Origin: Laetmonice hystrix
Taxonomy: Eukaryota
Length of the DNA: 64,000 nucleotides
Direction: 5' to 3'
NCBI GenBank assembly: GCA_965235115.1
Contig: OZ249436.1
Coordinates: 10,232,001 to 10,296,000, forward strand
Below the pieces are notes generated by a model that had not been told where the DNA came from, did not search any database, and saw only the letters and a program-made list of their open reading frames with translations. The translations under genes and the position numbers were made by a program. Within the stretch, counting starts at the first letter, position 1. Each line of letters starts with the position of its first letter. Of this stretch, positions 1,961 to 41,270 are shown piece after piece.

Positions 1961-2523
1961 GAACTCCAGAGTATGGCTACACCTTTTTTACAAATCCACG
2001 GTCAGTTTAGTATTGATGTCTTTCTTGGTCATTTTCTTTTTGTGTTTGACTCTACATTTTGTTGTTTTGATATTCATTCTGCAGCCCCTGGCAGCTGTGC
2101 ATTGTACCAACCACATTCAGTGCAAGTCTGTGGCATGCCGTTATAGGTTATATCTTGTTTAAACGTCGTTATTTGTTTCACGTTTAACCGATACATCAGT
2201 ACTTTCAAGTCATTTTATTAAACCAATTTGTCATGTGGCGATTTTTGCCGATTTCATAAACTATAAAGAAACACAAGAGATCAAAGAATTGACATTTTAT
2301 TAATTGAGACTTATACTTATCTTAAACCAAACTTAACCTAACTTATATGCTTAACTTAAACTAAACCATGGACCTGAACACAATCAACCTTCAACATATG
2401 AAAATACTACATCCAAAAACAGTGAAAGAATCAACTCAACGATGCAAGTATCATGCATAGGTCAAACTGCAACCCACTTTACTTGAAAGCAAACACTCAT
2501 CTCTTTGAATAATCGTGACCTCA

Positions 2524-16700: not shown

Positions 16701-18392
16701 TTCAGAACAGCTGCCAAAACTAATATCAAAAGCGATATACTATAAAGTGGCGCAAGCTGCTCACCCATCATACCAACTCACAAACACATGAGTTCTCAAA
16801 CACCAAGTAATATCAACAAGTACATTTTACAATAGACGTGTGTGATACCTTATACAGAGCGGTAATTACAATTCATTACAATAAGAGAAAAATCAACAAT
16901 GTAACACCTTCTGGTCCTGATATAATTAGCTCCCATTTATAAAGATATTTACCGTTGCTAGTGATGGTAGAATTCCCACGTGTTTCCTAGTTAAACAGGT
17001 CATTGTAGGCCTCTTGAGATCAAACGCCAAAAGGAATGAAATACACAATGTATATAAAAGATATACCCTCGCTAACTGAATATCTGTCGTTCAAAGGATG
17101 TTTCATTATGACCATGCTGAGCATGATCATTAAAAATTGTCACTCATATACTTACAGAACAAAATTTCAATTTATTTCTGGAATAAATAGAAGGAAAACT
17201 TTGGCATCACCTCCTAATACATGGCAAGATAAAGCAATCGAAGTTTTTCCTTCATTTTGATTTCCAAATGTGGGGCCGACTTTCGATTTCCTCGACTGAT
17301 AGCAAGACCTTTGATAATATTTTCATTATAGGTCTTTAAGAGGAGTGTTGTTCAGACTGCTCCACTACCCGGTAGTGTTAACCACAGTACAATGCAAGGC
17401 TGGGAACAGTTTCTTACAACTCATGATACATGGGTAAGCCAAGAGGTTTCAAGGTGACCCTGTTCTGGTTCCCATAGTGAATTGGAAAGCCGAGAGAAAG
17501 CCAGGGTTCAAATTTCACTAGGACACCCCTTTCCACCCGTTTATATGCCTTTAATGGTGGCATTGTACAGTGTCTAATTAATTAGGTCCCACTCTCTCTG
17601 GAAGGTGATTTTTCATTTATATTATACCGGGTACTTCCATTAGACTTGCCTACAGCATGTACCTGAAAACTCAAGCACCAGGCATACACTATTTGCAGAA
17701 CATAGACATAGCAAGGTGAAAACTCTCGAAGACCTCATATTATAGGAAGGGATTAAAGGGGACCTCATCTACTCAACAAACAGTAGAAGGTAACATTAAC
17801 TCACATTTCTTAGTTCTATGCAACTGTTTCCACAGCAACCTTACTTGGTCAGTACCATGCAGGTAACCTGGAGCCATGTAAACATGCATCCATGGCAACA
17901 GGACCGTCAATCCTCGTCTACCACCAATCTCATTATACCTCACACCCCCATGCCCACAATTTTATTGATCTATACCCAGATACATGTATATACAAATCTC
18001 TAATAATCCAGGTAAAACTTCAATCAACAGGATTCTGTCAACTGACGGAAAAGCTCACACCTAGATTAATACCCAATCAAGCACACCCCAGCACACACAA
18101 TTAAGGAACATTATTATGCACAGACTTGCTTACTCCATTAATTTGCATCAACAACCTCTCAAAGCTCTTCCCAATGAGATTTTGTTTCATCCTAAATATC
18201 CTCAAAACACTGGATCTGCTGAACGAATTTCGTTCGAAACATACTACCTGATCCTTTGTTTCGATTAGCACACCAAATCCCATGCTGGACACATGTTGGG
18301 ATCAAGCAAAGGTATACACAAGCATTGACTGTGGAAAAGACTTTGCAGCAGTCAAGGGAATCAGGCAGGATGCAAAGAATGAAGGGAAATCT

Positions 18393-21300
18393 TTACATGT
18401 TGCCACTACTTGTCGCCACATATTTTTCATAAACCAGCTTTGCTGAAACAACATCTTCAAGGGCCATTCCTGAAATAAATCACACAGAAAATAATCAGAA
18501 CAATCCAAATATTTGCGAGTGGACAACTTTCATATTCACAAATGAGGTACTTTAACTGGAAATAAAGTTTTCTTTAATGACATGGTCCCAACCAAAGGAC
18601 TGTGATTTATGAAAGCACCATGGCAAATAATAAAAATTCTAGAAGGGCATCAATAAGGTATGCATTAACAAACCATCACTTGACAAGTCACAATCGTAAA
18701 TGAATTTAAGCACGGATGAAAGAAATCTGATAACTCCATTTGAATGTTTGACAGCCTGGCCCCGGGCTCAGCCGGGTGTCTGCAAGCAGTGATCAGGGAA
18801 GGCACCCACGGCAAGGGGAGAAAGGGCATGGCAACACAATGCCGCCATAATCTAAGGGCATCACAGCAAAAGTTAGGGGCATGGTATGTGGCAGCATGCC
18901 ACCTTAAAATTTGACCCCTGTCAAGGAACTGCTACCTTTGAAAGACACCAGAATTCTTCTGTTATTGAACCAAGCAGGTGTACATACAGAATTTCAAGGA
19001 CTACTACTGCAACCTCAAAAGCATAATAAGGACTGAAGTGCAAACATATCCTTTACTGAAATTATTATTGGTACCGGGTACTTTAATTTTAATAAAATTG
19101 TTCTGAGAATAGGTTTGTGTTCAATACAGAACAGTGAATTCTTTTTAAATATTTCCGACATGGCAGTCCATGCAGGATATGAGCCACAAGCTGAGTGGGT
19201 AATCCTGGTTAAATATGGTTAATAACAAAAAATAAATAAAGAAAACAAGACTTTAAAAACTTGACCTACCTACGGACTTGAAAATTGTAGTCTTTTGCCA
19301 CAGAGCCTCTTTACGGCCAATTATAACTTCTCCAATCTCACCAAACACTTCAGCCTGAAATTTTTGAACGCAGATACAGAAATTCATAACCACTGCAGCA
19401 GGAAGATTCCAGTACGTGGGCAATAAAACGTCACATGGTTTTGTTAAAGCAAGAGTAGGAAGTAAGTAGGTTTATTTTATGGAAGTACATGTGTCTATGC
19501 TTAACTTAAATAACCTGCCAACCCTTGGATAAAATACACTTTCCAGAATCCATAGACATTAGCTGCAGCTCTCGCAGCACTCTTGTCAGTGTACCTTAGC
19601 CAACAGGATATCTCCAGATTCCTTATCACAGCCCTCCCTGCTGTCCACATAGACAACTCCTGAACGCATCAAAGCTGGATCTATCTCATGCCAGTCTGCT
19701 CGACATGCGCCGACAGCTGAAATGAGGAGCAGTAAGGTACATTACATTTCTATCCCAGGCTCGTAGCCAGAGGGTATCAGGGCATCAGATTTTTTTTTGG
19801 GGGGGGGGGGCAAGTTAGATAGGGCTAGTTATTTTCAAAGCTTTGTCCAGAATTTATGGGGCTTGGATAGATCTGCCACTGGGTAAATACTGAATGTGTT
19901 CTGTTTGCCATAAGACACACCCAAAAAGGTTCTGGTTACACGTTTGTATCCCAATATACATACGTGCCACAATAATGAAATGTGTTCAGGTCCTGCCATT
20001 TGTATTTAGGACATTGATGAATTTTTGGCAATTAAAATTTTCATACATGAGAAACACATTCAGAGTTAATATAAAGTGATTCAGTATAATTCTCCTTAAT
20101 GTTATTATTAATACAATTTGGCCAAACGTACCTGGGTAAACAGGCTTAACACTGAGATTTTACTCAAGTAATAAGTGGTGTCGCAAGGAATATTGCTATT
20201 TGTCTGGGTAACACTTCAACTGCACATTGTACATGACTCAGGTCTAGATCCAAAGATAACTAGATATGTCAAATAATCATACCATTAATATGTGCCCCTT
20301 CCTTCACCCATTCCTTCTGTAGAACAGGTGTAGTTGAGAAAGTAACGGTACAGATGATGTCTGCATCATGAACACACTCCTCCGCTGTGGCACAGGCGCG
20401 GCCTCCAATCTCCTGAGCAAACTTCTGTGCACTACAACGAGTGCGGCTCCATACACGCACCTTATCAATACACAAAACATTTTATTTGCAAAAAATTCAT
20501 GAATGTCCTAAATACAATACAACAATTTCAATTTACCAAGACATGTTCTTATCATAACATATACATCTACTTCAGTGAATATGAATAAAAGCAAAATCAC
20601 GGTAGTAAGAATCTTAAATACCTCATCAAATTTGTGCAGAAGACTGAGAACTTTAAAGTGGCTCCTTGCTTGAACTCCTGCTCCAAGAATGGCCAGTGTC
20701 TTGGAGTTTGGATTGGCTAAGTGCTGAAAAATCAGCAATAGTAACATAAATACAGAATTATGTGTGCAGTTACAAAAGCTATACCACAAACCATTAAGTT
20801 ATTTATTAAAGCAAACTTGTCCATTTGCTTGCATGGGGATTACCTTTGTAGCTACTGCTGATGCAGCTGCAGTGCGCGAAGCAGTAAGTGAGTCTCCATC
20901 TATGATCTGAAAAAAGAAAAGACTGCATGCCCTTAACCATTCGTATAAAATACTCTTATTTTATTAATTGCATATAATTCTTGTATTGTAAAGGCAAAAG
21001 TATAAATTTGTGACAATTTATAGGTGGATACATTTTCCTAAGATAAAAAAAATTGTTGACAGTCTGAGTCAATATTGTTAACCCATCCTTTCATCTTAGA
21101 CCACCAATGTGAATAAGATCGCTAACAAATATTGATATATCATGACTAGATTTAGGAAAATTTAACAAAATCCAGTATCAATAAAACTTTGTCACATTCC
21201 CATGTGCCTTTAAATCAGTCACGGCCATTTGCAAAATGTAAAATATGTGGTCTATACTTTTTGTAATACTTACTGCCTGAAGATTTCCATTCTCTGGATT

Positions 21301-23429
21301 GAAGAGCAGAACCTGACCTTGGTGGGTTGAAAATTCTTTGTTTTCTGGGTACACAGCAACAATTTTCGTGGCAAGAGCATTGTCGTGCTGGCTGTACCCT
21401 GGCATAACCAAGAGCAATCTGAATGGTACAAGTATTTTTTTTTAATCATAATTATAAGGTCAAACCTGTAATTAAGCTATTCACAAAATAACATGATAAC
21501 ATGTAAACCTTCTTGGTATCATTGAAAAGGGAGTTTCAAGCTTCAGTTGAACTCATTTGTGTTGGCATACACCTTTTTCTCATTTTATTTGGAAGGGGAA
21601 GAAGAGAGGAAAGATCAAGAGAGAAGTTCTGATATGTGATTACGAGAGCGGAGGTCAAAAAATGTTTGATTTAGATACACGTATAAGAACTTCTCGATTA
21701 AGATGTCTTAAACGTTATTTCTATGGAGTTCACCATGACTGGAAAATAGTTTTCAATAAACTCTTCTCCAATTATGGTGGTATAAACATTGTTATGTACT
21801 GCAACTGCGGGAAAGACTTTTTGAAACGGTTACCACTATATCACCAAGAGGTGTTGAATGTATGGCAAAAATCGGGGTATAAAGGCACGATGTTGATATG
21901 GAATAATAAGAATATTAAAATCAAAGGCCATACAGTTTTTAATAAACATATGTTTCAGTGTGGAATATGGTATCCACAAGATCTATTCCAAGATGGAAAA
22001 CCAATTCCCTTCGATGTTTGGGAGGGACGAGGTTTGAATACAAAACACTTCATGTTATGGAGAGGTATTGTACACGCCATTTTGAGTAAGAAAGAAGTTT
22101 TGTTAGGTGCAAATGAACCTGCCCCGCTGAGTCTGACGGCAAAGGTTGACGGCATCGAAACTTTATATCCTTTAGAATACACTCGGTCCAAAGAAATATA
22201 CAAAATTATTATACAAGACGTACTTTGCACTGAGTCAGCCGGAAAGAAAAAGCACAACGCCGAATTTGATATTGAAAGTGTATCCTGGAGGAAGATTTAC
22301 ACATTATACAGTAATCTTTGGAGAAGCAAGAAAATACAGGAATTCCAGTATAAAGTTTTACACAATATTGTTAGTCTGAACCCACTCTTACTCAAAATGG
22401 GCGTAAAAGATACTGATAAATGTAGCTTCTGTAATGCAGAGAAAGAAACCCTGTATCATTTGCTCTTCAGGTGTAAAATAGTGAAGATGTTTTGGACTAA
22501 GGTGGAAGCCTGGGCTAGTAGCTTTGTAAATACGGTTAAGTTCTCCGAAGAACATGTGTTATTCGGGGTGCTCTCAGAGGGTGCAGAAGTGACTATGTGC
22601 AATAGTATTTTCCTCTTGGGAAAATACTATATCTATAAATGCAAACTAACGAGTAATATTCCGAATTTAAATGGTTTCAAGGGAAGATTAAAAGAAGAGT
22701 TAATTATCGAAAGAGAGGTAGCAAAGAGTCTGAACCAAATCGAGAATTTCCTTCAAAAGTGGGGAGCATTATACCAAGCACTATAGCCCCATAGCCTAAT
22801 TGTAACACCTATATATATTATGTTTACAACTTAAATACAATCTTGTGCAATGATTAGTCCAAGTATCAGGTCTGTGTCCATGTAATTGTCTATGTAATTG
22901 TCTTATTTAACTGTCTTATGTATCATATGTTTATGTGTCATAGAGTACGTGTATAGTCAATGTCATATATTATTTGTGAAAAATAAAAATATTTAAAAAA
23001 AAAAAAAAAAAAAAAACCTTTTTCTCATTGACTGTGTGTGTCCAGGGCAAAATGTTCAGATCTATCAACGTACTCGCGGTGGGCCGAGGCTCACTGATAT
23101 GGATCTATTGGTCTATGTTATAATGCAGGGACGAACAACACGTTATAGCTATAGTATTACTCATCTGGCCATGCCATACGAATGCCGAATACCTGTCACA
23201 GTATCAACAACCAAAACAAAACTGAAACGAGCATGAGAAGCCCAACTTGGACGAATTCTTACCCTTTATGTGGGGTCACATCAATGACTGAGCGAACTGG
23301 CTGCACAACTCCGCCATCTACGCCTTGCGAGAAGTTTCCGAAAGCGTTTTCTAAAGCTGTCAACAGTTCTTCTCGATCAAGGAGCTTCTCAACTTCTGCT
23401 GCTGATATAAACTTGGGGCACACAGACAT
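18393..23429 (-). CDS. CRYM: Ketimine reductase mu-crystallin (ornithine cyclodeaminase/mu-crystallin family), 8 coding exons, 312 aa
   Basis: Exons (minus): 23263-23429, 21274-21418, 20844-20906, 20622-20723, 20283-20460, 19595-19716, 19270-19354, 18393-18469. All junctions are GT-AG with consistent phases; total 939 nt. Peptides GGVVQPVRSV, VMPGYS...LATKIV, DGDSLTASRTAAASAVATK, LAILGAGVQARSH (Rossmann fold), GAHINAVGACRADWHE, VYVDSREG..KESGD and KTTIFKSVGMALEDVVSAKLVY match vertebrate CRYM. Confidence 0.96.
21585..23016 (+). mobile_element. 5'-truncated non-LTR retrotransposon (L1/Tx1-like), C-terminal ORF2 fragment with zf-RVT-type Cys/His domain; inserted antisense in CRYM intron 1
   Basis: Stop-free ~400-codon frame to 22786 (FIWKGK...GG; FQYKVLH...CSFC..EKETLYHLLFRC...FW; LGKYYIYKCK). 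AATAAA at 22982, poly(A) at 22995-23016. 14-bp TSD acctttttctcatt at 21571-21584 and 23016-23029. Confidence 0.93.
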
Positions 23430-23741: not shown

Positions 23742-26700
23742 ATGGCTTCGGAGCGGGAAGAAGTGCGAACTACGGTAGCTAACAATTCTTGCTGTCTGAC
23801 ATATATTCTTTATGAAGCTATATAAGCATAGTTTTTCATTGTGATAAAACATTCTAATTCTTATGATCACTCAATGGATTTTAAAATATAACTCAGACTT
23901 AGTGACTTGCCGGTTTTCGCCTATTATCGCCCGCTTCCACCATAGCCATAGCATAGCCATAACGTTAGGCATGCCGCAGTCCCACGGCAACGTCGGTTAC
24001 ATGTAAACTCGGACCAGGGTGATCTTGGCCCAAAATGGTGAACTCGGCCCAGTGAATTCGGACTGGTATGGTGATCTCGGCCCACTGTGACAAATCAGAC
24101 AAAATTTAGGCCTAGCCTAACGTGTTAGGCCTGCTACATTTTGCACACATTAGACTAGTAGTAGTACCCCACCCTGGCCGCTCGCCAGTCGTTTCGGCCG
24201 CCTGCCAGTTCGGCCGCCCGTATATTGTAGTGACCAGCTTCACCGCAGGTCGTTGCCGCGGTGCTACGGGTCACTCAATCGACCGCCGCTCGAAATCGGC
24301 CGCCGGGCTTTGCACGCGGCACCCCCCGGCTCTGCCGTCGGAGTCGCCCGCGGGACTAAACTATCACTAACCCTAGGCCTAACCTTAACCTTAACTCTTC
24401 TGGTCGGGTACGGCCACCCGTAATTTACGCGCGGCCGACTTCGAGCGGCAGCCGATTTCGATATAGGCCTAGGCCCCTACACCCTAACGTTAACCATACG
24501 GGCGGCCGAACCGGCAGGCGGCCGAAATGGACGCACACCCCCTGGCCCCCACCCACCACCATTCTCGTTTCCGAGGGCAGTTCTTCCGGTCCTGAGTAGC
24601 CTGACGACCGGTGAAAACAAGGGTATCAAGAAGCGTTGCCCCCCGTACCAGTTTAATTATAGCACAGTGTGATGACCAAACCCAAACCAGTAACATCTAT
24701 ATTTAGTTCCGTTGCGTTGCTAGGCTTTTGTATTCACCGGCTCTGACCAGAGAAGATAGCAGCGCCACCTAGAAATGCCCGGATTATCGGAAACGAGAAT
24801 CGCAACCGAGGACTGCGCAGCACTTAGACAGTCGGCAGTGGTTACGGTTACTGGGACTCTGACTCTCCGGCCCAGTGCAGAGTGTCGGCCCGACTCCGCC
24901 AGGCCGTATTCCTAGCGCTCTGATTGGAATGGTAGATCTATATAACTGCTAGATCTATCTTTATCTAGTTACTAAATCGTACACCGAGTGTCCAGACATA
25001 GGACAATGAATGAACATGGTTACTGATGCTGTCAAAGTCCACTATAATTGCCCCTGGGCCAAGATCACCATGAACGGCTCGGGCCAACTTCACCACATCG
25101 GTCCGACATCACTTAGACATGGGCCGAGATCACCGTGGTCCGAGGTCACCATGGGCCGAGTTCACCACTCGCAAACTGTGACTGCTATGACACAAGATCC
25201 TTCGAATACCAGAAATTATAGTAAGAGATGCTTTTCAGCAGTGCTCAGTCAGTATGAAGTATGTCACACTCTAGGCTAGCTCTAGCTAGGCCAGGCCCAG
25301 GGCATGGTGGTAATTTTCTAAATTAATTTAAATTATTACCGACACAAAACAGTATGTCTGGGTTAGGGTTAAGGTTAGGCTTAGGGTTAGTAGTTGGTGT
25401 TAGTTTAGTCCCAGAATTGTTGTTAATTAGGCACTAATTAGATAATGTGCTATTCTGCCGTCAAACATCATCCAATAAGACTCCAGTATTGCAGTCACAT
25501 GACCCATCCATACGCCAGCAGAATAACCACTGCCTAAACTATAACACTACCTGGAGACCAAAAACCTCTATTAGGAGCCTCTCAAGACATTCCGAGTGAT
25601 TTATCCCCACCCTGACCCTTCCCTGTATGGCAATTAGCTCATCTGTAACTCGAGATCCAGTCAGGCCCCTCACACTGCCGCCAAGGCCATGTCAGCTTCA
25701 GAACACAGTGGTAGCACTGAATACATGTACTGTTGTGGTATATTTAATCAACCGATGGACTGATGATAAAAATTTAAGAGTTCACAAATTCCTTTTAGGA
25801 AATAATTCACTATCATAGATTTTTCTTGAAACCAAGAGCATGTGGTATATTTATCTGAACTTTACACAACAGACTATACTTACCAACCAGATAACATGGA
25901 CATGCCTGGACACTGTTATCAGACCTTTGTTCTCAGTCATGGTTAGAGATAACCACACTATCAAAGGAACAAGTCCAAACACACATACCACTGTCATGTA
26001 ATCGAGCTCTTGTGTAATGAAGCATAATCATTACATCTAAGGAAAGATAGAACACCTCCCGCAGTAATGTAAGCACACCATGTCAGCTCCAATCTTTCAT
26101 GACCACATACGTTTCCTTATGCAAACAAATAAGTATCATGCACCCTCCTCCACTACAGAGAGGACCCATTTGTAATCACCTGACTAATGATAAGCATTTT
26201 AGTATATATAGTACAACAATGTAATAGAAAGAGAGAGAGAGATAGACAGAGACGAGAACGCACGACGCGACTGTCTATCGTGACGAATAAAACCTCAGCA
26301 CACAACAAGTCTGTCTTCCCTTCCATGTTCACAACGTAACACTGTTATAGTTGATACATGAGCTAGAGTAATACTACCGGTGCTATCACCGCAAAGTCTC
26401 CCAGATCAGGGTAAAGTTTTTGTTTTCCTTTCAGTACATTCATGATGGTGCTCTGAGAGCTGGCTGTAACGGATCATGGGGTGTTGGAAACCAGATATTT
26501 ATCTTTGCTGGTGGTGATTCAAAACAAGAAGGTACGGTATAGAAATATCTGTATACAGGGGTAGAAAAATTCAATTTTTGGCCACTAGCAAAAATAGAAA
26601 TCTAATACATGTCATAAACCAAATTGCTGTGGATAGAAAACAGTCTTTAGGTTATGTAGAGGTATTCTTATTGTATTGGGCAGAGGCCTCCTTACACATG

Positions 26701-29700
26701 ATTGAGGCATGGGTGCCAAGGATGATCATAAAAGGGAATCCAATCATTATACTTGTAGCATGGATATTCCTATGTACTGGTAATTATTTTCTTATTCCAT
26801 CTGATATTCTCTTTGGTGTGGATTTTTAGTAAAACCTTCTGGTGCTGGAGCAGCTGTAGCTAACATACATGAAGTGAGATGGAATACAGATATGCATGGA
26901 CCTCTGACACGCAAACTTGTAAATGAAACACACAGTAAGCAAATCCTTTCAATAATAAAATCTTTGTAATTTCTATAAAGCAGCAAAGTTGTAACGACTT
27001 AGGAATGTTGCTTTTATAAAGTTAAGTTACATGATAACCATCTGCCTAGAGTATTTTTGGTATATTGGCAGGTCTGCTTTTGCAATCTTTTGACCATAGC
27101 AGGCAAAGAGTTCAATTGAATTTATAGTAAGTTACAGTAGGTAAAGTGCCACTCTAAGATTCATAAAATCCTTTTTTATGTTTTGATGTTAGTCAAATGT
27201 AAATAGGTATATTCCAAGGGTCCACATGTAGTAATGTTGTACACTGGATGAACACATCTATTCCTAATTGTCAGATATTTTCCTGAAGCTACAAAAACAT
27301 ACACCTGAAGTACAAAGCACAGCAAGAAACCCACAGTAAGTATAAAATTGGCAATTTATGAGCAGTCTGTACTAGGATTGCCGTTTTCCTTCATTCAGCG
27401 TTGTGACATCATAAACCTTTTTTTACCATGGTCTGGTGGTGACATACACACACACATAAATATATGTGTGGGTGTAGGGCAATAAACAGCCCAGTACACC
27501 CCCACACACAAATTTGTGTGTGTGCGTGTATTAAATACAAAAACTTCTTGTATTTAATACAAAAACTTCTTGTATTTAATACAAAAACTTCTTGTATTTA
27601 ATACAAAAAGTTTTCGTATATATACCAAAAGTTTCTGTATTAAATACAAAAACTTTTTGTATTTAATACAGAAAGTTTTTGTATTTAATACAGAAAGTTT
27701 TTGTATTTAATACAGAAAGTTTTTGTATTTAATACAGAAAGTTTTTGTATTTAATACAGAAAGTTTTTGTATTTAATACAAAAAGTTTTTGTATTTAATA
27801 CAGAAAGTTTTTGTATTAAATACAGAAAGTTTTTGTATTAAATACAGAAAGTTTTTGTATTTAATACAGAAAGTTTTCGTATATATACAGAAAGTTACTC
27901 TTGCATATCCAATCTGAAGTTCATTGCTTAGGGTGTCGTACTTCAAAGAATCTTTATCGCTATCTAATTGAGTGGAACGAATCAGAACGGAGGGATGGAG
28001 GGAGGCTGGGCGGGGAGGTAACCGACTGACCTAGTATAGACCAGCAGTTACCATGCGTGCACTTGTCTGGCCACAGTATTGGCACCCTCTTCCCGACTCA
28101 CTCGTGACTGACCCAGTCTGCATCCACACTTCTTATGGTCCTGTCATTATCAGAGATCTCCTTCATTATATTCTATATTTTTAAGAAACTTCCTGAAATC
28201 AAAAGCTGGGCATTGTCATAAATCAATAAATATTATGACATGTCATGCTCAGGGTGGGTTTCCACTCTTTTTCCATTTATTTGAGCAATATTATTAACTA
28301 TGACCCAGCAAACAGCACGGACGTGTTGCACTGGTACCAACATGTGTGAAACTCGTTAACTCAACAACGTTGTGTGCTGCAGTTAAATGCGTACAAGGGA
28401 CAGAGATTCAGAATTTAACAGCATCTCTTCCTTAGGGGCAGACCATTTAATAGCTGGGGGGTATGGTTTTTTCGTAAAAAAAAAGTTTGTTCGCCAAGTT
28501 TACCCAAAAAAATAGTTTGCTCTCAAATGTGTGTGAAAAAATAGTTTGCTAAGCAAAGTACTGCATGGTTCAAAGCTGAGTGCAGTACAATCAGATATTC
28601 CTAAGGCTGTGTTAGAGACGTTATATCTAGGAACCGGAGATTTTCTTCAACCTCTGTCATAGGCGCCGGAACCGGGGGGGGGGGGCGCCTGTCCCCCCCC
28701 CCCAGGTCAAAAGCTGGGGGCAAGCATATAGTCCCCCCCCCGAGCTCCAAGGTGGCAGGAGATGGTCAGACCGGCAGAGGGCCTAGATTTTGGTGCCAGA
28801 TGCCAGGAAAACGTGTATTTGGTACTTTAATTTACAATTTTTTCGGGGGGAGGACCCCCAGACCCCCCGCTCGAGACTTCGCGCCTTCGACGCTCTTATC
28901 ACCAGCATTTCTACACTTTGAACTTGGGACCTATGATTTGGTCTCCACCCCCCCCACCATCTTCTGGCGCCTATGTCTGTGGAACAGAAATTAGCGGGAA
29001 AACATAATGGTTGCTGCAGAATTATGTGCTGAAAAAAAGTTTGTCTCTGCCACCTCGGGAAAAAAATTGTTTGCTTTTGATTAGGGATAAAAAGAAATTT
29101 TGTTTTTTGTTGGAAGCAAAAAAAAAAGTTTGATCAGAAGGAAAAACCATACCCTCCCCCAGCCAATAAATGGTCTGCCCCTTATAAGTTCTGGCACCAA
29201 ATTTACCGTGACGGTCCGATCGTGGTGGGTCAGGTTGCAGTGACAGCCTCTGTCTGACCTAGAATTGCCATTTCCGAAATGAACCAGCCGGTTCGTTCCC
29301 ACCAGAAAATTATTCAGTCATTAGTAGTCATTGACTAGTAGTCATTGAAAATATGGTATATTTTCATTCAATTTGTAGCCTACGTCTTAAATTCCCCTTT
29401 CCCTTGGCATACGTACGTACGAAGATCAGTCTAATTAATGTATAGACTATGTTTTCTTGAATGTTTTCTTAGTCAGTTTGTAACCTGCGTGATGATTCAC
29501 ACATCTATTTGGTTTGCTGTGCCTTTGCAACTGTAGATCAACCAAACTTGCTTTTTCTGCAAAGAACAGACTGTTTGCGGGAGAAAATATTATTAGGGCT
29601 ATATAGGGTGCTGATATGGTACCTATACAACGAAGACCTATAGACCCAAAATCGAAGACCCCGCCCTTTTTCATTATATCATCTTGTTATGTCACCAAAC

Positions 29701-32700
29701 CTTGTCGAACTACACCATACTGCTGGTAAATTGAGGAAACAATCAGGGGTTTCGTTTACTAGTTTACCCCCCCCCCCTTAAAACTATAAAAGTTGCCGAG
29801 AGAGGTGTCGGGAGAGGTGTCGGTAGAGGAGCCGGGAGAGGTGTCTCGAGAGGAGCCGGGACGTGCCGGGAGAGGTGCCGGGAGAGGAGCCGCGCGGTGC
29901 CGGGAGAATGCTGGCGGTCAGAGGTTTCCATGGCCTGATCATCAATTATGTCATGTTCACATTGCACTGGCGGATCCAGGATTTCACTAAAGGGGGGGGG
30001 GGCACAGAAAAGTAATTCATGATTGTTCGCATTTCTAATTAAAGCTGAATGCTCTTGAATGAGAGCTTTAGAGGTATAGCCTACATAATAGCTCGGGGTT
30101 TCCCTGAGATACACCGTCAGTGTTAAAATCATTTAAAAATGAGTAGGCTATAGCGTGTATATGCCTAGAATCTATAATGAGTGAAGCTAAAGGGGGGGGG
30201 GGCACGTGCCCCCTGTGCCCCCTCTGGATCCGCCTTTGTAGTTGTCAACATGTATGAGGGAATTACGGTAGATCTTTTTCTGGCCTGTGTATCAGGTTGT
30301 GCCAAAGGTACATGGGCACTGCTAAGGGGCTCCGGGGGCATGCTCCCCTATAACATTTTGAAATCTAAAGTGCATGCATTCTCCTAAAAAAGTCAAATTT
30401 TTTACATTTATTTCACAGCTTCAAAACATCCAGCTCTCAAAACCTTAACTTTTGCATCAAGTATAAAACAAAGTGACAAAGGCGGTAGATTTGTAGCAAT
30501 CAGAATCATTATACATAATAAGCTCATCAGAGCTTTAAAAACAGTGTTATTACCACTATGTGCAGTGTTACCAGAGGTTCACATCACTTTCCCCGATCAT
30601 TAACGGAAAGTGGAGGGCTTCAAACAACGTTTGAAAGTCGTCCCTTTTTTGAAAGCTGCGTGTGTGTCACCGTTTGAAGTGCTCCCTTTTCACGTTGTTT
30701 ACATAGGTGGCCCGATTGAACACACCACTGGGCCATATACATTGAGCCTTGGTACGGCCGATTTCGGCCTCGTCCGACGATCGGCTGAAAAATTTCATCG
30801 GTCGTGTGAAATATTTTCAGTGTATATTAGACCGGGAGCCCAGAAGGTTTATTCATGTAAACGAGGGCAAAAGGTTTGACTTCTGGGATGTATAGATTCA
30901 TTCTTTCATATCTAAGAAATGGATTGCTGCCGGCAAAAAAAGCGGCTTTGACCCCCAAAACACCCAAAAAAAGGGTGCAAAAAAATACATTTATTCATGT
31001 GAACGAGGGCAAAGCTGAAAACAGTTTCAAATCTTTAGTTGGGTCTCACTGATTATAAAATGGCAATTTTAGATGCGGCTACCCCCCCCCCCCGACAGCA
31101 ACCCCCAAGGGGGGGGGGGGTAGAAAATTACATTTATTCATGTGAACGAGGGCAAGGCTGAAACTAGCCTAGAAATGTTCTTTGAGTGTCTCTGAATATC
31201 AAATGACCAATGACAGCAATTTTGAGAGCGGCTTTACCCCCGACAGCAACGTTCAAAGACCCCCCCCCCCCCAGCCACTAGGAGTTGGACGAAAAATAAC
31301 ATTTATTTATGTGAACGAGGGCAAGGCTGAAACTAGTCTAGAAATGTTCTTTGAGTGTCCCTGAATACAAAATGACCAATGACAGCAATTTTAGATGCGG
31401 CTACCCCCCTGACAGCAACCCCCAAGGGGGGGGGCGGGGGTAAGAAAATTACATATATATATATATTCATGTGAACGAGGGCAAGGATGGAAATAGTCTA
31501 GAAATGTTTGTTGGGTGTGTTTGAATACAAAATGACCAATGACAGCAATTTTAGATGCGGCTACCCCCCTGACAGCAACCCTCAAGGGGGGCGGGGGGTA
31601 AGAAAATTACGTATATATATTCATGTGAACGAGGGCAAGGATTGAAATAGTCTAGAAATGTTTGTTGGGTGTGTTTGAATACAAAATCACCAATGACGGC
31701 AATTTTAGATGCGGCTACCCCCCTGACAGCAACCCCCAAGGGGGGCGGGGGGGGGGGTTAAGAAAATTACATATATAAATTACTAAACAAAACTCGCTGT
31801 AGTTTCTTTTGCAATAATTTCCATGTGAATTGATTCCATCCGCGAGCGCGTATTGAAGCACCTGAGTTCAGAAAAATTAAGCTTTTAGTCCGCTAATTAC
31901 GCCGGTAACGGAGCACATCTGTAATTTATAATACATGTTCCAGCACATCCATAGGGCCCCATAGTTAACGTCGCGTCACCCTGAAACGTGTACAAATCAA
32001 ATCAGTCCGTATGGCACTCCTGTGTCATACGGACCACCGTATGGCACCCCTGAACGGCACTGGCAGATGGCATGCGCATAAAATAAAAACCTGTAGGCCT
32101 ATATAAATGAATGAGGTAATGATACAATCAGTGTTCAATCTACCGATGCGGCTTTCCGAGTAAAAAATTTCATTGACAGCAGTTTAACCATGGCTTCCTC
32201 CCTGACAGCAGTGGGGAAGAAGAAGTAACATTATTCAAGTGGGTGGAAAGAAGTGTGGAACTTGAACGTGTAATTTTGGTGGGTGGCTCGAACTCTGTCT
32301 TACTGGGTGGACACCTTCTTTTCACTGCACAAAACCTGCTGAAGCACTGTGAGTGATAGAAATGATATTCTTGTAGTTCACGGGCCCGTCTCACTAAAGG
32401 CTGGTTAATAACCAGATCGTTAAGTTAACAGCAGTGAATGGAAGGCTGCTGGTTACTGTAACCAGCAGACTTCCATTCACTCCTATGTTAACTTAACGAT
32501 CTGGGTTTTTTTAATTTTTTTTATTGAGCATCTTTATACAGGATTACCTACTCGGCTGAGAGCCGTCATGAAAGCGGGGTCCTGCACATGTGATCACATC
32601 ATCCGACATATGTACAACATGTTTTATATTACACGGCGAGGTAGAAGGCAAATGTGAATACAATTCATGGATTAAAATAAGCGTATTGAGATCACAGAAA

Positions 32701-35700
32701 ACTAACACTACATCACATTATATATCACAGAAAAACTAATACTACATCACACCATATATCATGTACTTCACACCAAGTTATTAACCAGCCTTTAGTGAGA
32801 CGGGCCCCAGAGTTGCACCTCCCCGCTCCTCTCCCAGCACCTCCCGACACCTCTCTCGGCACCTCCCGGCTCCTCCTCGGTACCTCTTGCGGCACTTTAC
32901 CCGGCACCTCTCCCGGCACCTCATTTAACATTCGGGACTCCCTCGGGCATATGACGTCACTTCCTGCTATTCGAATATACCCTCGGGTGGAATAGCGGCC
33001 ATGTTTGGCAACCAGATACACCGCCAAATGGAGGTGTGTAGCGAGGCCCTGAGTGAACCGTCATATCCCATCGAGCCAGGAAGTAGTGCATTATTGACAC
33101 CTGCTCCTTCGGCGTTGTATGTGCAAATATAAATTTCTGGTATGAAGGGGAACGTTTGAAGAAGAAAAATGAATCACCCAATTTACCTAAATGGGCGTCA
33201 ATACGGTAATTTATCAAATTCTGGGAAGCAATATGGCCGCATCCATGTACGACACTGGCCCGACACATGGTAGGACTACTTGTAATCATGTTGTAATTTA
33301 AGTTGTATCATGGCATGATACTATTGTAATATTGCCCACTGACTTCGGGGAAAGCATTGTACGCCTATTTTAGTTGCTTCCATGCCTGATGCAGACAAAA
33401 TACTGCAAGCACTGCCATGCTGTCGAGAGTCCCGGCTAAATGTACCCGCGATGCAATGCTCAAAATGGCACCTATTTCACCCGAGGCTACTTTCGAAGAT
33501 ATGGCCGAGGATTCCCGAATGCTCATTTAAGTCACTTCCTAAATGATTTCACGTCACTTGCCTACCTCACTCACGTCACTCGCCCACATCACTCACGTCA
33601 CTACCCCACATCGCTCATGTCATGCCTCCACATCACTCACGTCACTCGCCCACATCACTCACGTCACTCGCCCACATCACTGATCACTCGCCAACATCAC
33701 TCACGTCACCCGCCCACATCACTCACGTCACTCCCCCACATCACTAACGTCACTCGCCCACATCACTCACGTCACTCGCCCACATCACTCACGTTACTCC
33801 CCCACATCACTCACGTCACTACCCACATCACTCACGTCACTCCGCGACATCACTTATCACTCGCCCACATCACTCACGTCACTCGCCCGCATCACTCACG
33901 TCACTCCCCCACATCACTCACGTCACTACCCCACATCACTCATTACTTGCCCAATCACTCACGTCACTACCCCACATCACTTTTGACTCACCCACATCAC
34001 TCAAGTCACTACCCCACATCACTGATTACTTTCCCCATCACTCAAGTCACTACCCCACATCACTGATTACTTGCCCCATCACTCACGTCACTACCCCACA
34101 TCTCTGTCACTCCCCACATCATTTCCCATCACTCGCCCACATCACTCACGTCACTCGCCCACATCACTCACGTCACTCCCCACATCACTGATCACTCCCC
34201 CACATCACTCACGTCACTCCCTCACATCACTCACGTCACTACCCCACATCTCTGTCACTCCCCACATCATTTCCCATCACTCGCCCACATCACTCACGTC
34301 ACTCGCCCACATCACTCACGTCACTCGCCAACATCACTCACGTCAATCCCCACATCACTGATCACTCCCCCACATCACTCACGTCACTCCCTCACATCAC
34401 TCACATCACTACCCCACATCACTTTTGACTCACCCACATCACTCAAGTCACTACCCCACATCACTGATTACTTTCCCCATCACTCAAGTCACTACCCCAC
34501 ATCACTGATTACTTGCCTCATCACTCACGTCACTACCCCACATCTCTGTCACTCCCCACATCATTTCCCACCATCATTTGTACGTGCTGTTTCAGTGTCC
34601 AATTCTAGAAACAGTGTTTAAAAGAGCATGGGGAGGGCTGCCTGCTTGGTGTGTAGTGATAGTATCCTGCCTTGGTTCTAACCCCAGTGGCCACCGCTCC
34701 GTCACCTCCCTGTAACCCGAGTAAGACCAGATGCTGGTCATCTCTGACCAACAAATGACCACATGCTGGGCGTGACCAATACAAAACAACATCGGCCCAC
34801 GGTCCCCCAGGCCCCACGAGTTTCACCTCCCATACTCGTTGCTTCTACCAACGAGTTGCTTCTACTAAGTTCTAGGTCGGATAATGACAGATGATCGCAG
34901 ACTGGTTTACTGTTACACTACACTTTGACTCAGTGCCTCCGGCATTGAGACGAGGCCGCGTGTCAACGAGGACACCAGACACAGGAGGGTGGTGTAGTTG
35001 CAAGGTTCCCAATGAAAGGGGTCACATGAACCGCAAAGGAATTTGATATATGATAAGCAAATGGACAGTTAATGAGATGTTAGTAAGTTGTTAGATTCTT
35101 TGAAGTGTGATACAGCAATTAGATATGCATGAGTAACTTTCTGTATATATACGAAAACTTTCTGTATTAAATACAGAAACTTTCTGTATTAAATACAAAA
35201 ACTTTCTGTATTAAATACAAAAACTTTTTGTATTAAATACATAAACTTTTTGTATTAAATACAGAAACTTTCTGTATTAAATACAAAAAGTTTTTGTATT
35301 AAATACAAAAAGTTTTTGTATTAAATACAAAAAGTTTTTGTATTAAATACAAAAAGTTTTTGTATATATACGAAAACTTTCTGTATTAAATACAAAAAGT
35401 TTTTGTATTAAATACAAAAAGTTTTTGTATATATACGAAAACTTTCTGTATTAAATACAAAAAGTGTTTGTATTAAATACAGAAAGTTTTTGTATTTAAT
35501 ACACGCACACACACAAATTTGTGTGTGGGTGTGTACTGAGCTGTTTATTGCCCTACACCCACGCATATATTTATGTGTGTGTGTATGTCACCACCAGACC
35601 ATGGTATTTTTTAATTTAACTACAATTACATGCATGAATTTCCATGCTTTGTGCCACTTGTTAATTGGAAGATGCAATATTTGATTTGATGAGGAACACA

Positions 35701-38700
35701 TTATTTTGAATAACAGTTGAGCATCAATGGTCTTACCTCTTCAACATCTCGGTTTGGTTTACCTTGTCTAATTCATACTGCATTCTTTCAATATCAGGCT
35801 GGTCAAATTCAGTCGTGAATATAGATCTGTTATAAAAGCCTGCTTGATCGACCTACAGACTGCACTTAGTAAGTTATACAAGCCATTTTATTTAAAACTA
35901 TCCATAGAAAGCTACACAAACCAACCAAGATCCCAGTTATAGCCCTAAAGTTGATGAATATCATCGTTGCCACTGAATAAAAGAGTCCAGGTTACAGGAC
36001 GGAGGGACCCCCTTACCTGAAGAAAAATCTATAGATTTGCCGGTGGGAGGGAGGGCCCATCATTTCACGAGCATGGCTGCACTACCTATACTTGTCTGTA
36101 AAGATGTCAATTTTATGTCTAAACTTTTCTTCTCTTATCTTTTTTCATTTCAGAAAGGAGCCAGAGAGATGAAGAGAAAAAGGAACTTGAAGCCCAGTTA
36201 CAGCTCTTTGATATGGCAGAACTAGTTTGGAGTCTTTCAGAAATTCTGTTCATAGATTCTCAGCCAAGTAAGTTAACTGGTAACAAATTCCAACAACTAC
36301 ATTAGAGATTTTGTGGTGATTAGGACATTTCTTCCTGTGGAGATTTAGAGCCCTGATTTTTTATATGCCCAGGTGGTGTATTTTTCCAACTTATGCATCA
36401 ATAGTGGGTTACACCTGTATTACAATTATTGGATATATACAATATTAATTTCCAGAAATCCCCCATGATGTAAGATTATGGTTTCAGTTTCTCTCTACCT
36501 GTACAGTATATTTCTTAAGGATTTAAAACCAAAGAAACTTTGCATTGGTGAGACTAACAGGATTTCTTATTGTGCATGCAGGTGGTTCAGTATTGGGTCA
36601 ACTGTTGGAATGGTTACGATGGCATTTTGTTGATGGTGAGAGGTTGGCACATGAGGTGATGCAGCACGAGCCTCCCCAAGACCATCCAAATTACTGGGAT
36701 GCAGTAAGTAACATTTGAAGGAACAGAGATTTTGTTCAGAAATATTGGAGTGGTAATGATAACATTACATGTATATCAATTATGATGCTTCAAGAGGTTG
36801 TATTCTTAGGTATGGTTTTGTAGGTTTCTAGATTTCTCTGGAGGCACACCTTCAAAGTACCAAATTGTGGGTAGCTGTAGTCATAAAATTATTGGTAGGA
36901 ATAACAGTGATGTTCTTTTTGTATTTTTCAAGGTGTATAGCTTTGTCCTTCAAGGTCGTGTCGAGGAGGCTCGGAAAATGTTGTCTCGTCATTCATCAAT
37001 AACAAATGATTCCTTCATAACCATGGACACCCTTCTTAGAAAAATGCCCCTCTTTGCAGTAAGTACAAAAAATAACTAATGAGTGTTGCCTTTCAGCAAG
37101 AGAGCATAATTGAAGGGATGCTCTCTGTGTGATATTTACCACACAAATACTTGAAAATAATGAATCCCTTAACAGTAGGCATTATATGGTGTTTAAGGCA
37201 GAGTTTTTAGGCATTGTTGACAGACCGTTTCTTGTACCACAAAGCAATGACATTTGAACAACTTGTGAGAACTTATATTGATGTTTCCCCTCTAGCTCTT
37301 CAATGGTCAGTCTCTGGGTGAGTTTGAATTAAAGTGGCGCCATTGGCAAGAAGAATGTGTCATGCGGCTAGAAAGTGGGGACTTTGCAACAGACAGCCAC
37401 CTTCAAACTATCTGTCGGGTAAGTAAATCTAGATCAATTAAATGATTATTTACTGTATAATCAACTCTGTAATATGGAAATTTGTCCCTTTACATTAGCC
37501 AAGTTGCAGGAATCTTGGTTCATATTGTATTGGTTTTTTTTTTGGGGGGGGGGGGAGTAAACCCAGAGAATTGTAAGAATACAACAGTTGCATGGAATTC
37601 TTTGTTTCAGGTGTTGTGTGGAGAAACCCAGGTGTTGCTTGAACTAAGTGACCTCTGTGAGAGCTGGTATTGCATGCTGGTCACGCGCCTTCTGTACCAT
37701 AATCCGACAGTGAAAAGTACTGACGTACAGTACCACACACAGTTTTGTATTGATGCCTATGGTGGCAACCACTGCCTGCAACCATGGGACAATGTCCTTC
37801 TGGCAGCCCTCGAGTTTAACATTCATCAGGTCATCAGGGAGGCAAGGTACAGTCGGGAGAAAACTTCATTCTAGGGGAGACTTTCTACATGTTGAATTAT
37901 GTATTTTATATACAAATGTAGTTATATAGATTTCTACTCAAAGCAGAGTTGAATAAAACCTTATGTCCGTGGTGTTGTAATGCCTGTGAGGTATTATGAA
38001 ACAAGGTTAAGAGTGCTGCATGTTTTTGTTTTCCAGTACGAGTTGTGGAAACTGGTGGTTTGTTGCTCATCTGGCAGACCTTTTGCATCACTGCAACATA
38101 CTTGATTCGCAGACACTCTTGTAAGTGGAAAATTTTATATCTTGCTTATAGAAATTAAATACTGTGCTGAAAATATGCTGCTACTTTTATGCACCAAAGC
38201 ATGGTAAGGACAAAGGAGCTATAAATTAGAACTGAATTGTATGTAATAAAATCTGATTTACATAAATTAAAGCTCACTCCGTGTTAGGAAAGCTTTTCTG
38301 AAGAAGCTTGTTGAAAAGTACTCTTGCAGAATCAGTTTTTGTAGTTGCTCAAGAAAATCCAAACTTCATTTGATAAACCTCTGACAAGAAAAGAAATTCC
38401 TGGTATTTTGCAGAAATATGAAACTGTATGCAAAAGGGTGAAGCCTGCTTTGATAGCCAGACTTTTCTATTTTCTTTTTAGTTTTGGTTCAAATCTACGT
38501 GAGTTTCTATTACTGGAATATGCAACAAGTTTGATGTCACATCATAGGTAAGAATTCTCACTTTCCTTCTGTGTATGTAGAAGTGATCCTATTGTAATCG
38601 TTCGAAGTTAACCACATTACTTTGTACCGTCAGTAGAGTCTTGCACTGACGTGATACTTTGATTAAATGGATGGAAAAAACAAAGCTTTCCTTGCTGACT

Positions 38701-41270
38701 CCCTTAACACATTTAAACCAATTCTAATACCTACCACCAGTAGTATCAGAACTTTCTGGAGAAGAGGAGGTATTTAAATGGGAGATATATGTAAACAAAG
38801 TTTGAACGTTGCAGAAGAAGTACGCTTTGCTTCCTATCCAGCACTTTTTTACAGCTGTTTTACAACCTCTATGAATGTGTTACTCTTTCAGTCTCTGGCA
38901 GATTGGCATTGACTACCTGGATCACTGCCCACAGTTTGGCAGGTAGGAACTCCTGCTTGTCTATTATTTACAAGACCGTCGCTAGCCAATATCAGATACA
39001 ACAGGTCTTTTACAAGACTGTCCCCCCAACAATATAATGTACATGGTTGGTACATGGACTTTACTTGTTTTTTTATGTCTATGACTGAAAGGTATTCATA
39101 TTTGCAGGCCATACTTGGAACACTTTGTAGAACACCTTCCCTTAGAAACAGAGAAAAAGGCACACAAGGTCCTGCGTCTGTGTGAACATCGAGGCATGAC
39201 TGATCAAGGTAGGCACTTCTATTGATTACTGTGCTGGCAGTCTTAGTATGGGATAATCATGCTATGGACATGTCATGTATCTTCATAGTTTTTAAGAGCA
39301 TTTAGTTAAACCTTTGTTTATCCAATTTCTTAGTTTAAATCTTTACTTACTGCTAATTCTAACGGTTAAGTTAAGTCGTGGGATGACTGTGTCTGCCATA
39401 CTCACTTTTATTTACTTTACCTGCCTGTACAAAACCCACAGCTGCTAATAGAAATATTTTTGCAGTGCGGAGTATCTGTAAAGTTGTGGGGATGAAAGCC
39501 CTTCACAGCGGGAGATTGGGCTCTGCCCTGTCCTGGGCACTTCGGTCTAAGGTAGGCTGCTGATGTGTGCTTGTTTACTCTTGACAATTTTGGTCAAATA
39601 GATATTTATCTATTTACAAAAGTATATATATATAATTTATTTATTCCCATTTCCTTCATTAGCACTAACCTAACTGCCATCTTCAGCTGTTATTCTGTCA
39701 TTCTTTGTTTACCTTTTCTTATAGGATGTTGCTTTTATCACGTTCCTTGCGGAAAGGTAAGTATGAAGAAGATATAAATTTATATAATGTTTTTGAGAGT
39801 TGAATTGCCTTTCTTTGTTTTAATGCAACTGATTTTGTTAATATCATGTATTTTGGTATCTGCCAGGTTCCTGACTGAGTATGGTGAAAGTGGCGACTTC
39901 AGTAACCTAGACCTCATCGATCATCTGGAGTCATCCATGCTACTCAGCTCCAAACTCACATTCTTGGGTTAGTTTATCCTCATGCCATACTTGTAAAATT
40001 ATTGTCCTGATATCGGTCACTATGGACTTGATGTGCGAGGATATTCTCTTAATAATCATTCCAAGATTATGCTTTGTTTTATACTTTCGTCAAGATTAAA
40101 TTGCAAACGTTTGAGTTATGTGTTACAGGGAAGTATCGTGAGTTCCATAGACTCTACGAGGATGGAGACTTTGCTGCTGCAGCATCTCTTTTGTTGTCAC
40201 TCCTCACAGCCAAGTTGGCACCAAAGAAGTAAGTATAGAATTTCTGGGGGGCAGGGGGGCAGCTAATCTACTAATGTTTTAAATGGGATGACACTCACAA
40301 CATGGATAAATACCAAAACAAATGTTTTGTTTTTCAGGTTCTGGCTGACACTACTCACAGATGCCCTCCCATTGTTAGAGGCAGACGAAGTGAGCTCTTG
40401 TTTTCACATTTTTTAGTGTTGCATGTATGTAAAAGGGCCTTTAGAATAAAAGACCACTCAAGGCTTTTCTAAACAAAAGTTCCCATTCTAGGTGATAATA
40501 TATTAACCTGTGAAGTGTTTTTTTCACCTATCCACATTTAAGTATTTCTGACATGACTATTGGCTTTGTCAATATTTAAAGAATTGCAGTTAAAAGCTGG
40601 TTTTGTTTCATAAAAGGTGATCTTCAGTAGCCAGCAAACATACGAATTGATGCACTGTTTAGAGGAGCTAGGACTTGAGGGAAGGTTAGCTGCAAAAAGA
40701 GTCGGCAAAGAAAAACAAAAGATGCAGGTAAGGTTTCTCTTGGAAAGAGTTCTTCTATAAATTGATAATGTTGCTATCTGGAATCCATTCTTCAAGCCAT
40801 GCCTGGTTGTTTACCTGGCATTGCCTTGAACAACCAGTGAAATTCATTGGTACATCGCCCAATGAATTTCATTGGCTCTTCAAGTCCATGCCAGGTCAAC
40901 GATTTTGTCAACAACCAGCCATAAGGCGATCACTTCATAGCAACAACAAACAACTAGAAAGTTGGATTTCATTAGATTTCTCCATTGCTGTGGGTATACA
41001 TGTACATTTATTGATTTATATAGTATAAGACCTTATCTAACCCAACAGCCCATATCTTCAATTTGGAGTCATTGAACTAAGAGATAATCATGAATGGCTT
41101 TAATTTGTTACATTAAATTTAATATAGATTTTCTAATTCTGAAGTTACCAGTGTGATTGTGTTGTGTGTTGCAGACTGAAACTGAGGAAGACAAGTTGGA
41201 ACTACTCAAACTGGCCCTGGCCCGGAATCTGGCCCGAGCCACTGTCAGCAATGGTTCACTGAAAGTATGA
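23742..41270 (+). CDS. NUP85: Nuclear pore complex protein Nup85 (Y-complex), 21 coding exons, 655 aa
   Basis: Exons: 23742-23774, 26435-26531, 26830-26934, 27275-27335, 35798-35868, 36154-36267, 36582-36703, 36933-37058, 37296-37418, 37611-37846, 38037-38120, 38482-38547, 38892-38942, 39108-39208, 39466-39551, 39725-39756, 39867-39967, 40129-40228, 40338-40389, 40617-40727, 41175-41270. GT-AG, phases consistent, 1968 nt. Peptides [109 protein letters not shown] and [10 protein letters not shown] match vertebrate NUP85. The first two exons are the least conserved. Confidence 0.95.
24005..25170. mobile_element. Non-autonomous DNA element with inverted arrays of short subterminal repeats (GGTGAACTCGGCCCA-like) in NUP85 intron 1; unclassified
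   Basis: About 4-5 copies of ggtga(a/t)ct(c/t)ggccca at 24005-24085 and about 6 reverse-complement copies (tgggccgag(a/t)tcacc) at 25055-25167. No TSD was found for this outer element. Confidence 0.6.
24180..24539. mobile_element. Nested MULE-like MITE with 8-bp TSD and internal telomere-like ctaacc repeats
   Basis: Inverted subterminal repeats tttcggccgcctgccagttcggccgcccgtat (~24193-24223) and atacgggcggccgaaccggcaggcggccgaaa (~24496-24527). Flanks ccctggcc at 24172-24179 and 24540-24547. The superfamily is inferred from TSD length only. Confidence 0.55.
25734..26341 (+). mobile_element. Probable solo LTR (Gypsy-like, 608 bp) in NUP85 intron 1
   Basis: TGT...ACA termini and 4-bp TSD ctgt (25730-25733 and 26342-26345). 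Internally a TATA-like tatatata (~26203), a GA-repeat and AATAAA (26286) about 50 bp before the end, in U3-R-U5 order. Confidence 0.6.
27527..27895. repeat. 21-bp tandem array (tgtatttaatacagaaagttt) inside the left TIR, ~17 copies; inverted copy at ~35136-35503
   Basis: Read directly. The unit has a near-palindromic core, gtatt(t/a)aatac. Confidence 0.95.
28435..29181. mobile_element. PIF/Harbinger-type MITE with TTA TSD
   Basis: tta|ggggcagaccattta ... taaatggtctgcccc|tta. Confidence 0.85.
28658..28975. mobile_element. hAT-like MITE with 5-bp TSD nested in the Harbinger MITE
   Basis: tctgt|cataggcgccgga ... ttctggcgcctatg|tctgt. Confidence 0.75.
29965..30238. mobile_element. MITE with GGCGGATCCAG-type TIRs (related end at ~16260-16276)
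   Basis: cactggcggatccagg ... ctggatccgcctttg. No clear TSD. Confidence 0.6.
30848..31775. repeat. Tandem repeat, ~140-170-bp unit, about 6 copies
   Basis: Recurring attcatgtgaacgagggcaa...ctagaaatg...gcaattttagatgcggctaccccc...gacagcaacccccaaggggg. Confidence 0.9.
32382..32807. mobile_element. Harbinger-like MITE with internal hairpin, apparently interrupted by a minus-strand retroposon 3' tail
   Basis: TIR gggcccgtctcactaaaggctggttaataac / gttattaaccagcctttagtgagacgggccc, flanks cac/cag. Internal palindrome at 32414-32502. Poly-T plus tttatt and a stem-loop at 32506-32585. Confidence 0.75.
33548..34570. repeat. 22-bp minisatellite (cacatcactcacgtcactcgcc consensus), ~45 degenerate units
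   Basis: Read directly. It is the source of the spurious His/Thr/Ser-rich ORFs 33440-34066 and 34071-34361. Confidence 0.95.

Follow-up and report, generated by a model that had tools for sequence, protein, structure and literature searches.

FB, Galileo and the sea-urchin TU are foldback elements. As a class, such elements are defined by long modular terminal inverted repeats (TIRs) with an internal tandem array and by a non-coding middle, and the array repeats of Galileo and Tetris have been proposed to serve as extra transposase sites (PMC4079207). A second point of reference is the IS3EU/GingerRoot group, in which complete elements end in TA..TA and usually make target-site duplications (TSDs) of 6 bp (PMC10045372). 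IS3EU ends in rust fungi read TAYGG..CCRTA (PMC12730594), and GingerRoot copies of 3.9-12.9 kb, with TIRs of 100-150 bp and G+C-rich targets in clubmoss, carry captured DNA (PMC6839031). Here we describe an 8,183-bp element of foldback architecture at 27424-35606, in an intron of NUP85, within a 64,000-nt stretch of Laetmonice hystrix contig OZ249436.1 (hereafter the window), and we argue that it was probably driven by a transposase of the IS3EU/GingerRoot group.

IS3EU has been called poorly characterised (PMC11934779; PMC8232023) and is known almost solely from Repbase entries, which comprised 45 IS3EU families in 2022. Repbase classifies by an 11-base terminal match together with the same TSD length (PMC4455052). 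Two oyster satellites have been annotated as IS3EU (PMC8268682), and array ends may be ordinary in this group.

The element, its family and an arm-free allele

The element, first proposed in a sequence-only reading of the window, is real: self-BLAST of the window recovered its arms (27424-27913 and 35118-35606) as one long inverted pair, 91.4% identical over 491 columns, and no further arm copies in the 64 kb. That reading called the arms near-perfect, which holds for the outer domain, the 103 bp of which differ at three arm positions (44, 68 and 77, that is 35563, 27491 and 27500 in the window; 97% identity) and begin with an exact terminal run of 43 nt, but not for the arrays, where variant units are ordered differently on the left and on the right. 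Both of the nested palindromes that it named lie in the outer domain, which folds far more strongly than shuffled sequence (z -4.3, none of 200 shuffles being as good). From arm position 104 inward, each arm carries 17 quasi-palindromic units in register, as had been claimed, except that the unit is 22 rather than 21 bp long by Tandem Repeats Finder (TRF), spacings of 21 bp making up just 1 of 16 on the left and 2 of 16 on the right, at different places. The unit consists of two alternating near-palindromes, with dyad axes every 22 bp and weaker axes in between. The unit pattern matches at 47 places, every one inside an arm, whereas 100 shuffles gave 0; on this and on the self-BLAST pairing a chance origin of the arms was rejected. 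Further inward, beyond the inner domains, both sides share a 14-nt island (27940-27953 and 35093-35106) with a score of 28, the maximum of 300 shuffles being 27.

The middle domain is non-coding and spans 7.2 kb, in agreement with the cargo of other repeats of about 7 kb described from the sequence. Small TIR elements are nested in it, no fewer than four, and two of these have exact duplications (TTA and TCTGT). Both defining features of foldback elements, modular TIRs with a tandem array and a non-coding middle, are thus found here. Pfam recognised no family in any of 12 stop-read-through frames of the cargo (stops as X, a 1-kb minisatellite omitted) and nothing among its 31 open reading frames (ORFs) but 1 weak match below cut-off; Rfam matches in the window numbered 0. 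Several nested inverted pairs are 70-85% alike, as against 97% for the outer arms, and because they are more decayed than the arms, part of the cargo would be older than the insertion and would have arrived with it. Of the element's sampled words, fractions of 0.48, 0.45 and 0.41 occur in three public sequencing runs, whereas the arms make up 8% of its distinct words; this hints that much of the cargo recurs elsewhere, as collapsed variants if the sampled individual has the element or as other copies if it does not, but since filters also remove records we do not count it as evidence.

The host gene is NUP85, as had been recognised at the outset: it matches Pfam PF07575 and solved Nup85 chains, and four of its GT-AG exons join in one open frame with no stop. 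The intron bearing the element (27336-35797, GT-AG) is 8,462 nt long, 96.7% of it being element, where about 97% had been estimated. Removal of the element and one T6 leaves 273 nt, close to the predicted remnant of some 280 bp and in keeping with two upstream NUP85 introns of 298 and 340 nt, so that a nucleoporin-gene intron of 270 bp would have been enlarged thirty-fold in a single step. Its designation as intron 4 stands only if one unlocated first exon is assumed, three exons having been found upstream of the element.

Three public runs, all of one sample in one study, contain part of the element, and their contigs were compared with 35480-36980 alone, 1,501 nt around the right end. In all three, one contig matches the flank from exactly 35607 (to 36338), preceded by 1,241, 1,152 and 24 letters, respectively, none of them arm. 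The depths of these contigs (61, 33 and 63) approximate the sums of the adjoining haplotype paths (26+33, 15+11 and 39+34), and we infer that they represent an apparent empty allele; indirectly, they indicate that the whole 8,183-bp unit is missing from the other allele. None of 12 single-path differences between window and runs in the flank is common to all three runs, and one bubble path is identical to the window; the sampled individual is probably the window's own. The simplest reading is therefore that of a heterozygote, with the element on the window haplotype and another haplotype without it. Between themselves, the two haplotypes of the sample show about 17 single-base differences and several indels over 1.37 kb of flank (36309-36980), as in a highly heterozygous genome.

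The same contigs reveal a family. In the three runs, at least 12, 8 and 12 contigs part from the arm at 35606 and continue into unrelated sequence (consensus agreement 0.43-0.46), which makes the element one member of a multi-copy family ending in GTA. A few additional contigs, among the matches listed, leave the arm one to five bases past 35606. This shared end, together with the arm-free match from 35607, bears out the TAC...GTA termini put forward initially, and the run contigs likewise support the proposal of a non-autonomous family, here multi-copy and non-coding with TIRs. Relative to the flank, summed depth over the outer domain is higher by a factor of 13 to 218, depending on position and run (five positions), a rough measure that gives no copy number; the family may comprise tens of ends, perhaps a hundred or more. 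Copies in the runs range from over 99% to under 90% alike, some matches of 72-87 nt showing 7-9 differences, and since identities span this range, both young and old members are present. In some siblings the outer 22-32 nt are retained while 36-81 nt of the outer domain are missing, from which tip and array would seem to be the parts needed; foldback elements as a class vary from copy to copy in array length and in the middle. At 35563 this copy has a G that is almost its own, differing from about 99% of family depth, and the differences at 27491 and 27500 may be private to the left arm, no common variant being listed at their right-arm counterparts. Separately, two contigs in each of the three runs leave the arm at 35599, 7 bases short of the tip, and would stem either from copies that are truncated or from a sibling family that has a different tip. 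Exact terminus patterns had 0 matches in viral contigs and 0 in metagenome contigs, and the two-unit array pattern had 0 in metagenome contigs.

Proposed insertion mechanism and competing explanations

Defective copies of transposons with TIRs and a DDE (aspartate-aspartate-glutamate) transposase are mobilised in trans: the paired ends are bound, the copy is excised and its insertion is staggered. On balance we favour the view that this element is a non-autonomous DNA transposon of the cut-and-paste type with foldback architecture, and that it was inserted whole into a T6 of the NUP85 intron. A transposase encoded elsewhere would bind both arms of about 490 bp and cleave immediately outside TAC..GTA, and the whole 8,183-bp unit, cargo included, would then be inserted into the six-T run of an intron of about 270 bp, with duplication of the run. 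The transposase itself would probably belong to the IS3EU/GingerRoot group, which is integrase-like. Multiplied binding sites would be provided by the 22-bp units, each about two helical turns long, by virtue of which long non-coding copies would compete for transposase. Assembly of the cargo would have taken place in a previous copy, given that decay has gone further in several nested elements than in the arms. The fullest version of this proposal, namely that a recently active IS3EU/GingerRoot family with foldback arms moves a multi-kilobase non-coding cargo and uses the 22-bp unit as a predicted multiplied transposase site, is one that we advance only tentatively.

The strongest competitor accepts the same element and the same 6-bp duplication and assigns them to another transposase, most plausibly of hAT6 or of an unclassified group; we regard it as unlikely, if still worth serious attention. 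The ends of hAT elements usually start with CAG or TAG, which weighs against hAT6, and the ends of our element depart from the fungal TAYGG after base 3, which speaks for a transposase other than that of IS3EU. Families of hAT6 with 6-bp TSDs do exist in an animal hAT lineage (PMC12730594), which counts against our assignment, and several superfamilies are said to have given rise to foldback architecture independently (PMC4079207). On the other side, TA..TA plus 6 bp is given as the rule for IS3EU/GingerRoot (PMC10045372). The sequence-only reading had cited TAY..RTA with 6 bp as the IS3EU signature; TA..TA with 6 bp is indeed in print, TAY only as part of the TAYGG of rust fungi (PMC12730594). 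A literature search that excluded the Repbase report did not find hAT6 termini in print.

A second competitor keeps the TAC..GTA ends and supposes a shorter duplication of 0-5 bp, hidden in a longer T-run and produced by another superfamily. The window does not fix the length because its flanks are T-runs: with these ends any duplication of 1-6 bp fits (the T-run allows 0-6), all such lengths predict a first match at 35607, and none of 7-20 bp was found in the window flanks under any of three end definitions. The exact TTTTTT duplication read from the sequence is therefore one of several that the window permits, and what favours it is the contig break and the frequency of runs. Contigs overlap by 30 nt, and the leftover expected at a break that splits the alleles is 24 letters with T6, 23 with T7, 25-29 with T8-T12 and 28 under the TA model discussed below; the arm-free contig of run X3 has 24, which fits T6 only, if the break was caused by the filled allele. 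Moreover, among the 103 candidate A/T runs of 6-12 that lie elsewhere in the window than in the element, T6 is the most frequent (62), runs of 7-10, as the shorter duplication would have it, accounting for the other 41. We are thus fairly confident that the duplication is 6 bp and consider a shorter one improbable. Two contigs of run X2 extend five bases into the T-run, a hint of T-tract targeting that comes from one run only and was not used; the predicted start of the arm-free contig of X2 (near 26266) adjoins a GA microsatellite and was too weak to use. Further candidates were rejected on their ends or duplications: a Mutator-type foldback for want of an 8-10-bp TSD, and Polinton and Ginger2, the other groups with 6-bp TSDs, as their termini are AG.. 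or TG..CA (PMC6839031) and not TAC..GTA.

It is also conceivable, albeit quite implausible, that two independent solo arms or truncated copies face each other by chance, or that a composite once took up local DNA. The order of variant units differs between the arrays, the cargo resembles repeat-rich DNA of the ordinary kind, GingerRoot (PMC6839031) and Styx commonly have solo TIRs, and, as a point against our own proposal as well, paired ends of a second copy were not seen in run contigs on 35480-36980. However, 17 units are in register in both arms and the outer domains are 97% identical, equal T6 runs stand on both sides of the arm pair, the leftover intron is of normal size, the arm-free match begins at the exact boundary of the element, and self-BLAST found no inner termini in the window. 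Least credible is a Tc1/mariner-type element with CC..GG ends, the alternative originally offered as CCATGG termini with a TA duplication: although TA is the only duplication compatible with such ends, and the family ends all finish in TA, this model is contradicted because the arm-free contigs would match from 35605 and in 3/3 runs match from 35607, and about 56 kb of flank, both strands included, contain a single T7-A-T6 site.

Returning to the whole-unit insertion of a trans-mobilised foldback element, several observations should be set against it. First, neither the length of the T-run nor the left-flank identity of the upstream part is seen in the arm-free contigs, so that the empty-site check proposed from the sequence yielded contigs starting at 35607, at odds with the TA model, and not the empty-site letters themselves. 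Second, the three runs are not independent, because they stem from one sample, which seemingly carries the window's haplotype. Third, the filled right junction is in no contig placed on 35480-36980, the following bin holding the flank contig alone; the filled-junction contig may have been removed by graph cleaning. Fourth, the 24-letter leftover is seen in one run of three and is supporting rather than decisive, because a one-T-longer variant of any run yields 24 as well. Finally, Pfam scans of the ORFs and frames of the cargo gave no transposase remnant, and no transposase is linked to these ends.

Feature coordinates and the rest of the window

The features of the element and its surroundings are collected in Table 1.

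Table 1. Positions of the element's parts, of its nested repeats and of the adjoining NUP85 exons in the window.
Feature	Position	Strand	Basis
NUP85 exon 5' of the element	27275..27335	+	AG/GT ends, in frame with neighbours
Left T6, probable TSD	27418..27423	.	sequence; length 6 inferred
Left arm outer domain, with terminus TACCATGG followed by a related pair of palindromic modules flanked by CA/TG and a small GGGC..GCCC hairpin between them	27424..27526	+	sequence, folding; family end at this base demonstrated on right arm
Left arm array, 17 quasi-palindromic units, mostly 22 bp, consensus TGTATTTAATACAGAAAGTTTT	27527..27896	+	TRF, unit pattern
Left arm short inner domain	27897..27913	+	self-BLAST
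Middle domain with minisatellites and small nested elements, without Pfam match	27914..35117	.	repeat and Pfam scans
Nested miniature inverted-repeat transposable element (MITE), GGGGC..GCCCC ends, TTA duplication	28435..29181	.	sequence
Second small TIR element inside that MITE, 5-bp duplication TCTGT	28658..28975	.	sequence
12-mer array, rich in G+C; partner in inverted orientation at 32815-32922 (short stretches 70-96% alike)	29791..29907	+	TRF, self-BLAST
Nested MITE-like element, no duplication found	29965..30238	.	sequence
154-bp tandem array, about 4 copies	31124..31777	.	TRF
Nested MITE with GGGCCC ends, perfect TIRs of 31 bp and a hairpin inside (32412-32504); CAC/CAG flanks without exact duplication	32382..32807	.	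self-BLAST
C/A-rich 22-bp minisatellite, 48 copies, no relation to arm unit	33549..34563	.	TRF
Right arm inner domain	35118..35134	-	self-BLAST
Right arm array, 17 units	35135..35503	-	TRF
Right arm outer domain ending CCATGGTA, multi-copy in runs	35504..35606	-	sequence and run contigs
Right T6, probable TSD; match of arm-free contigs begins here	35607..35612	.	run contigs
NUP85 exon 3' of the element	35798..35868	+	splice sites and frame

Within the cargo, we take the nested MITE with the TTA duplication to be PIF/Harbinger-like, and a decayed inverted pair (32930-33010 and 33457-33530, 78% over 41 nt) possibly marks the ends of another old element.

Elsewhere in the window, a gene of the ornithine cyclodeaminase/mu-crystallin type (about 18300-21450, minus strand; Pfam PF02423, one exon) is apparently divergent from NUP85, and antisense to the neighbouring gene lies a 411-codon open stretch with a zf-RVT match (21551-22783, plus strand), the 3' part of ORF2 of a long interspersed nuclear element. 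Convergent with NUP85 is a TMEM104-type amino-acid transporter gene (43175-49077, minus strand; one exon of about 260 codons), the best matches of which, at 61-67%, are to molluscs, nemerteans and unnamed proteins, as would fit a spiralian lacking a near relative in the collection searched. Coiled-coil exons at 59678-64000 (minus strand) have a CC2-LZ (NEMO/TNIP-like) match below cut-off. Near the window start (1-3680 and 4247-4830) there are a 74-81-bp tandem array and several direct repeats in dispersed positions, and self-BLAST gave short inverted pairs, probably MITEs, at 20000-20517, 24192-24527, 44312-44538 and 52900-53085, and between 41005-41091 and 61074-61162.

Comparison with known systems

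The TA..TA ends, the probable 6-bp duplication and a size in the GingerRoot range are shared with IS3EU/GingerRoot, a superfamily that occurs in marine animals, and GingerRoot too has copies that lack a DDE transposase and carry other DNA. Membership is nevertheless unproven, because the ends agree and the 6 bp are probable while the defining transposase is absent from this copy, itself a departure from complete members. Four dissimilarities tell against the assignment: arms of about 490 bp with a 22-bp array stand here in place of GingerRoot TIRs of 100-150 bp, the target is T6 and not G+C-rich as in clubmoss, the tip reads TACCA and not the fungal TAYGG (3/5 bases match), and the TIRs of Styx/REP9 of Zymoseptoria, a distant IS3EU member, measure 36-43 bp. 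The text of one GingerRoot supplement, figures being outside the search, gave no match to the element terminus, and extracts of PMC5844308, PMC7805219 and bioRxiv 10.1101/2021.09.26.461848 contain no IS3EU terminus. In the literature searched, with Repbase, Dfam and most subscription papers outside its scope, there was no printed IS3EU foldback, and there was no annelid foldback element.

Styx/REP9 is in other respects a close parallel, being about 8 kb long with 6-bp TSDs, solo TIRs and defective copies moved in trans (PMC8232023, PMC10853768), but unlike our element it has four genes including an integrase-type transposase. With hAT6, the element shares the 6-bp TSD, probable here, and the animal lineage (PMC12730594); unlike hAT6, its cargo holds no hAT trace.

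Should the tentative proposal of an active IS3EU foldback family be true, an integrase-like superfamily would join the foldback producers, and a superfamily of unstudied mechanism would gain a candidate binding site, polymorphic insertions and a probably live partner. A multi-copy family, an apparently heterozygous insertion, a sharp end and a repeated motif together offer a practical route to an active transposase and its binding site. The gain is limited to one family, perhaps one superfamily, because foldback arms and non-coding cargo have long been known.

In architecture, the closest counterpart is Tetris of Drosophila virilis, whose arms are likewise built in three parts, an outer flanking domain, a tandem array and an inner domain, around a non-coding middle (PMC4079207). 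Tetris, however, has 8-10-bp TSDs and units of about 220 bp and is assigned to Mutator, unlike the probable 6-bp TSD and the 22-bp self-complementary units described here. Taken together, we regard the element as the representative of a new family of known design, and perhaps of one more superfamily in which this design has arisen.

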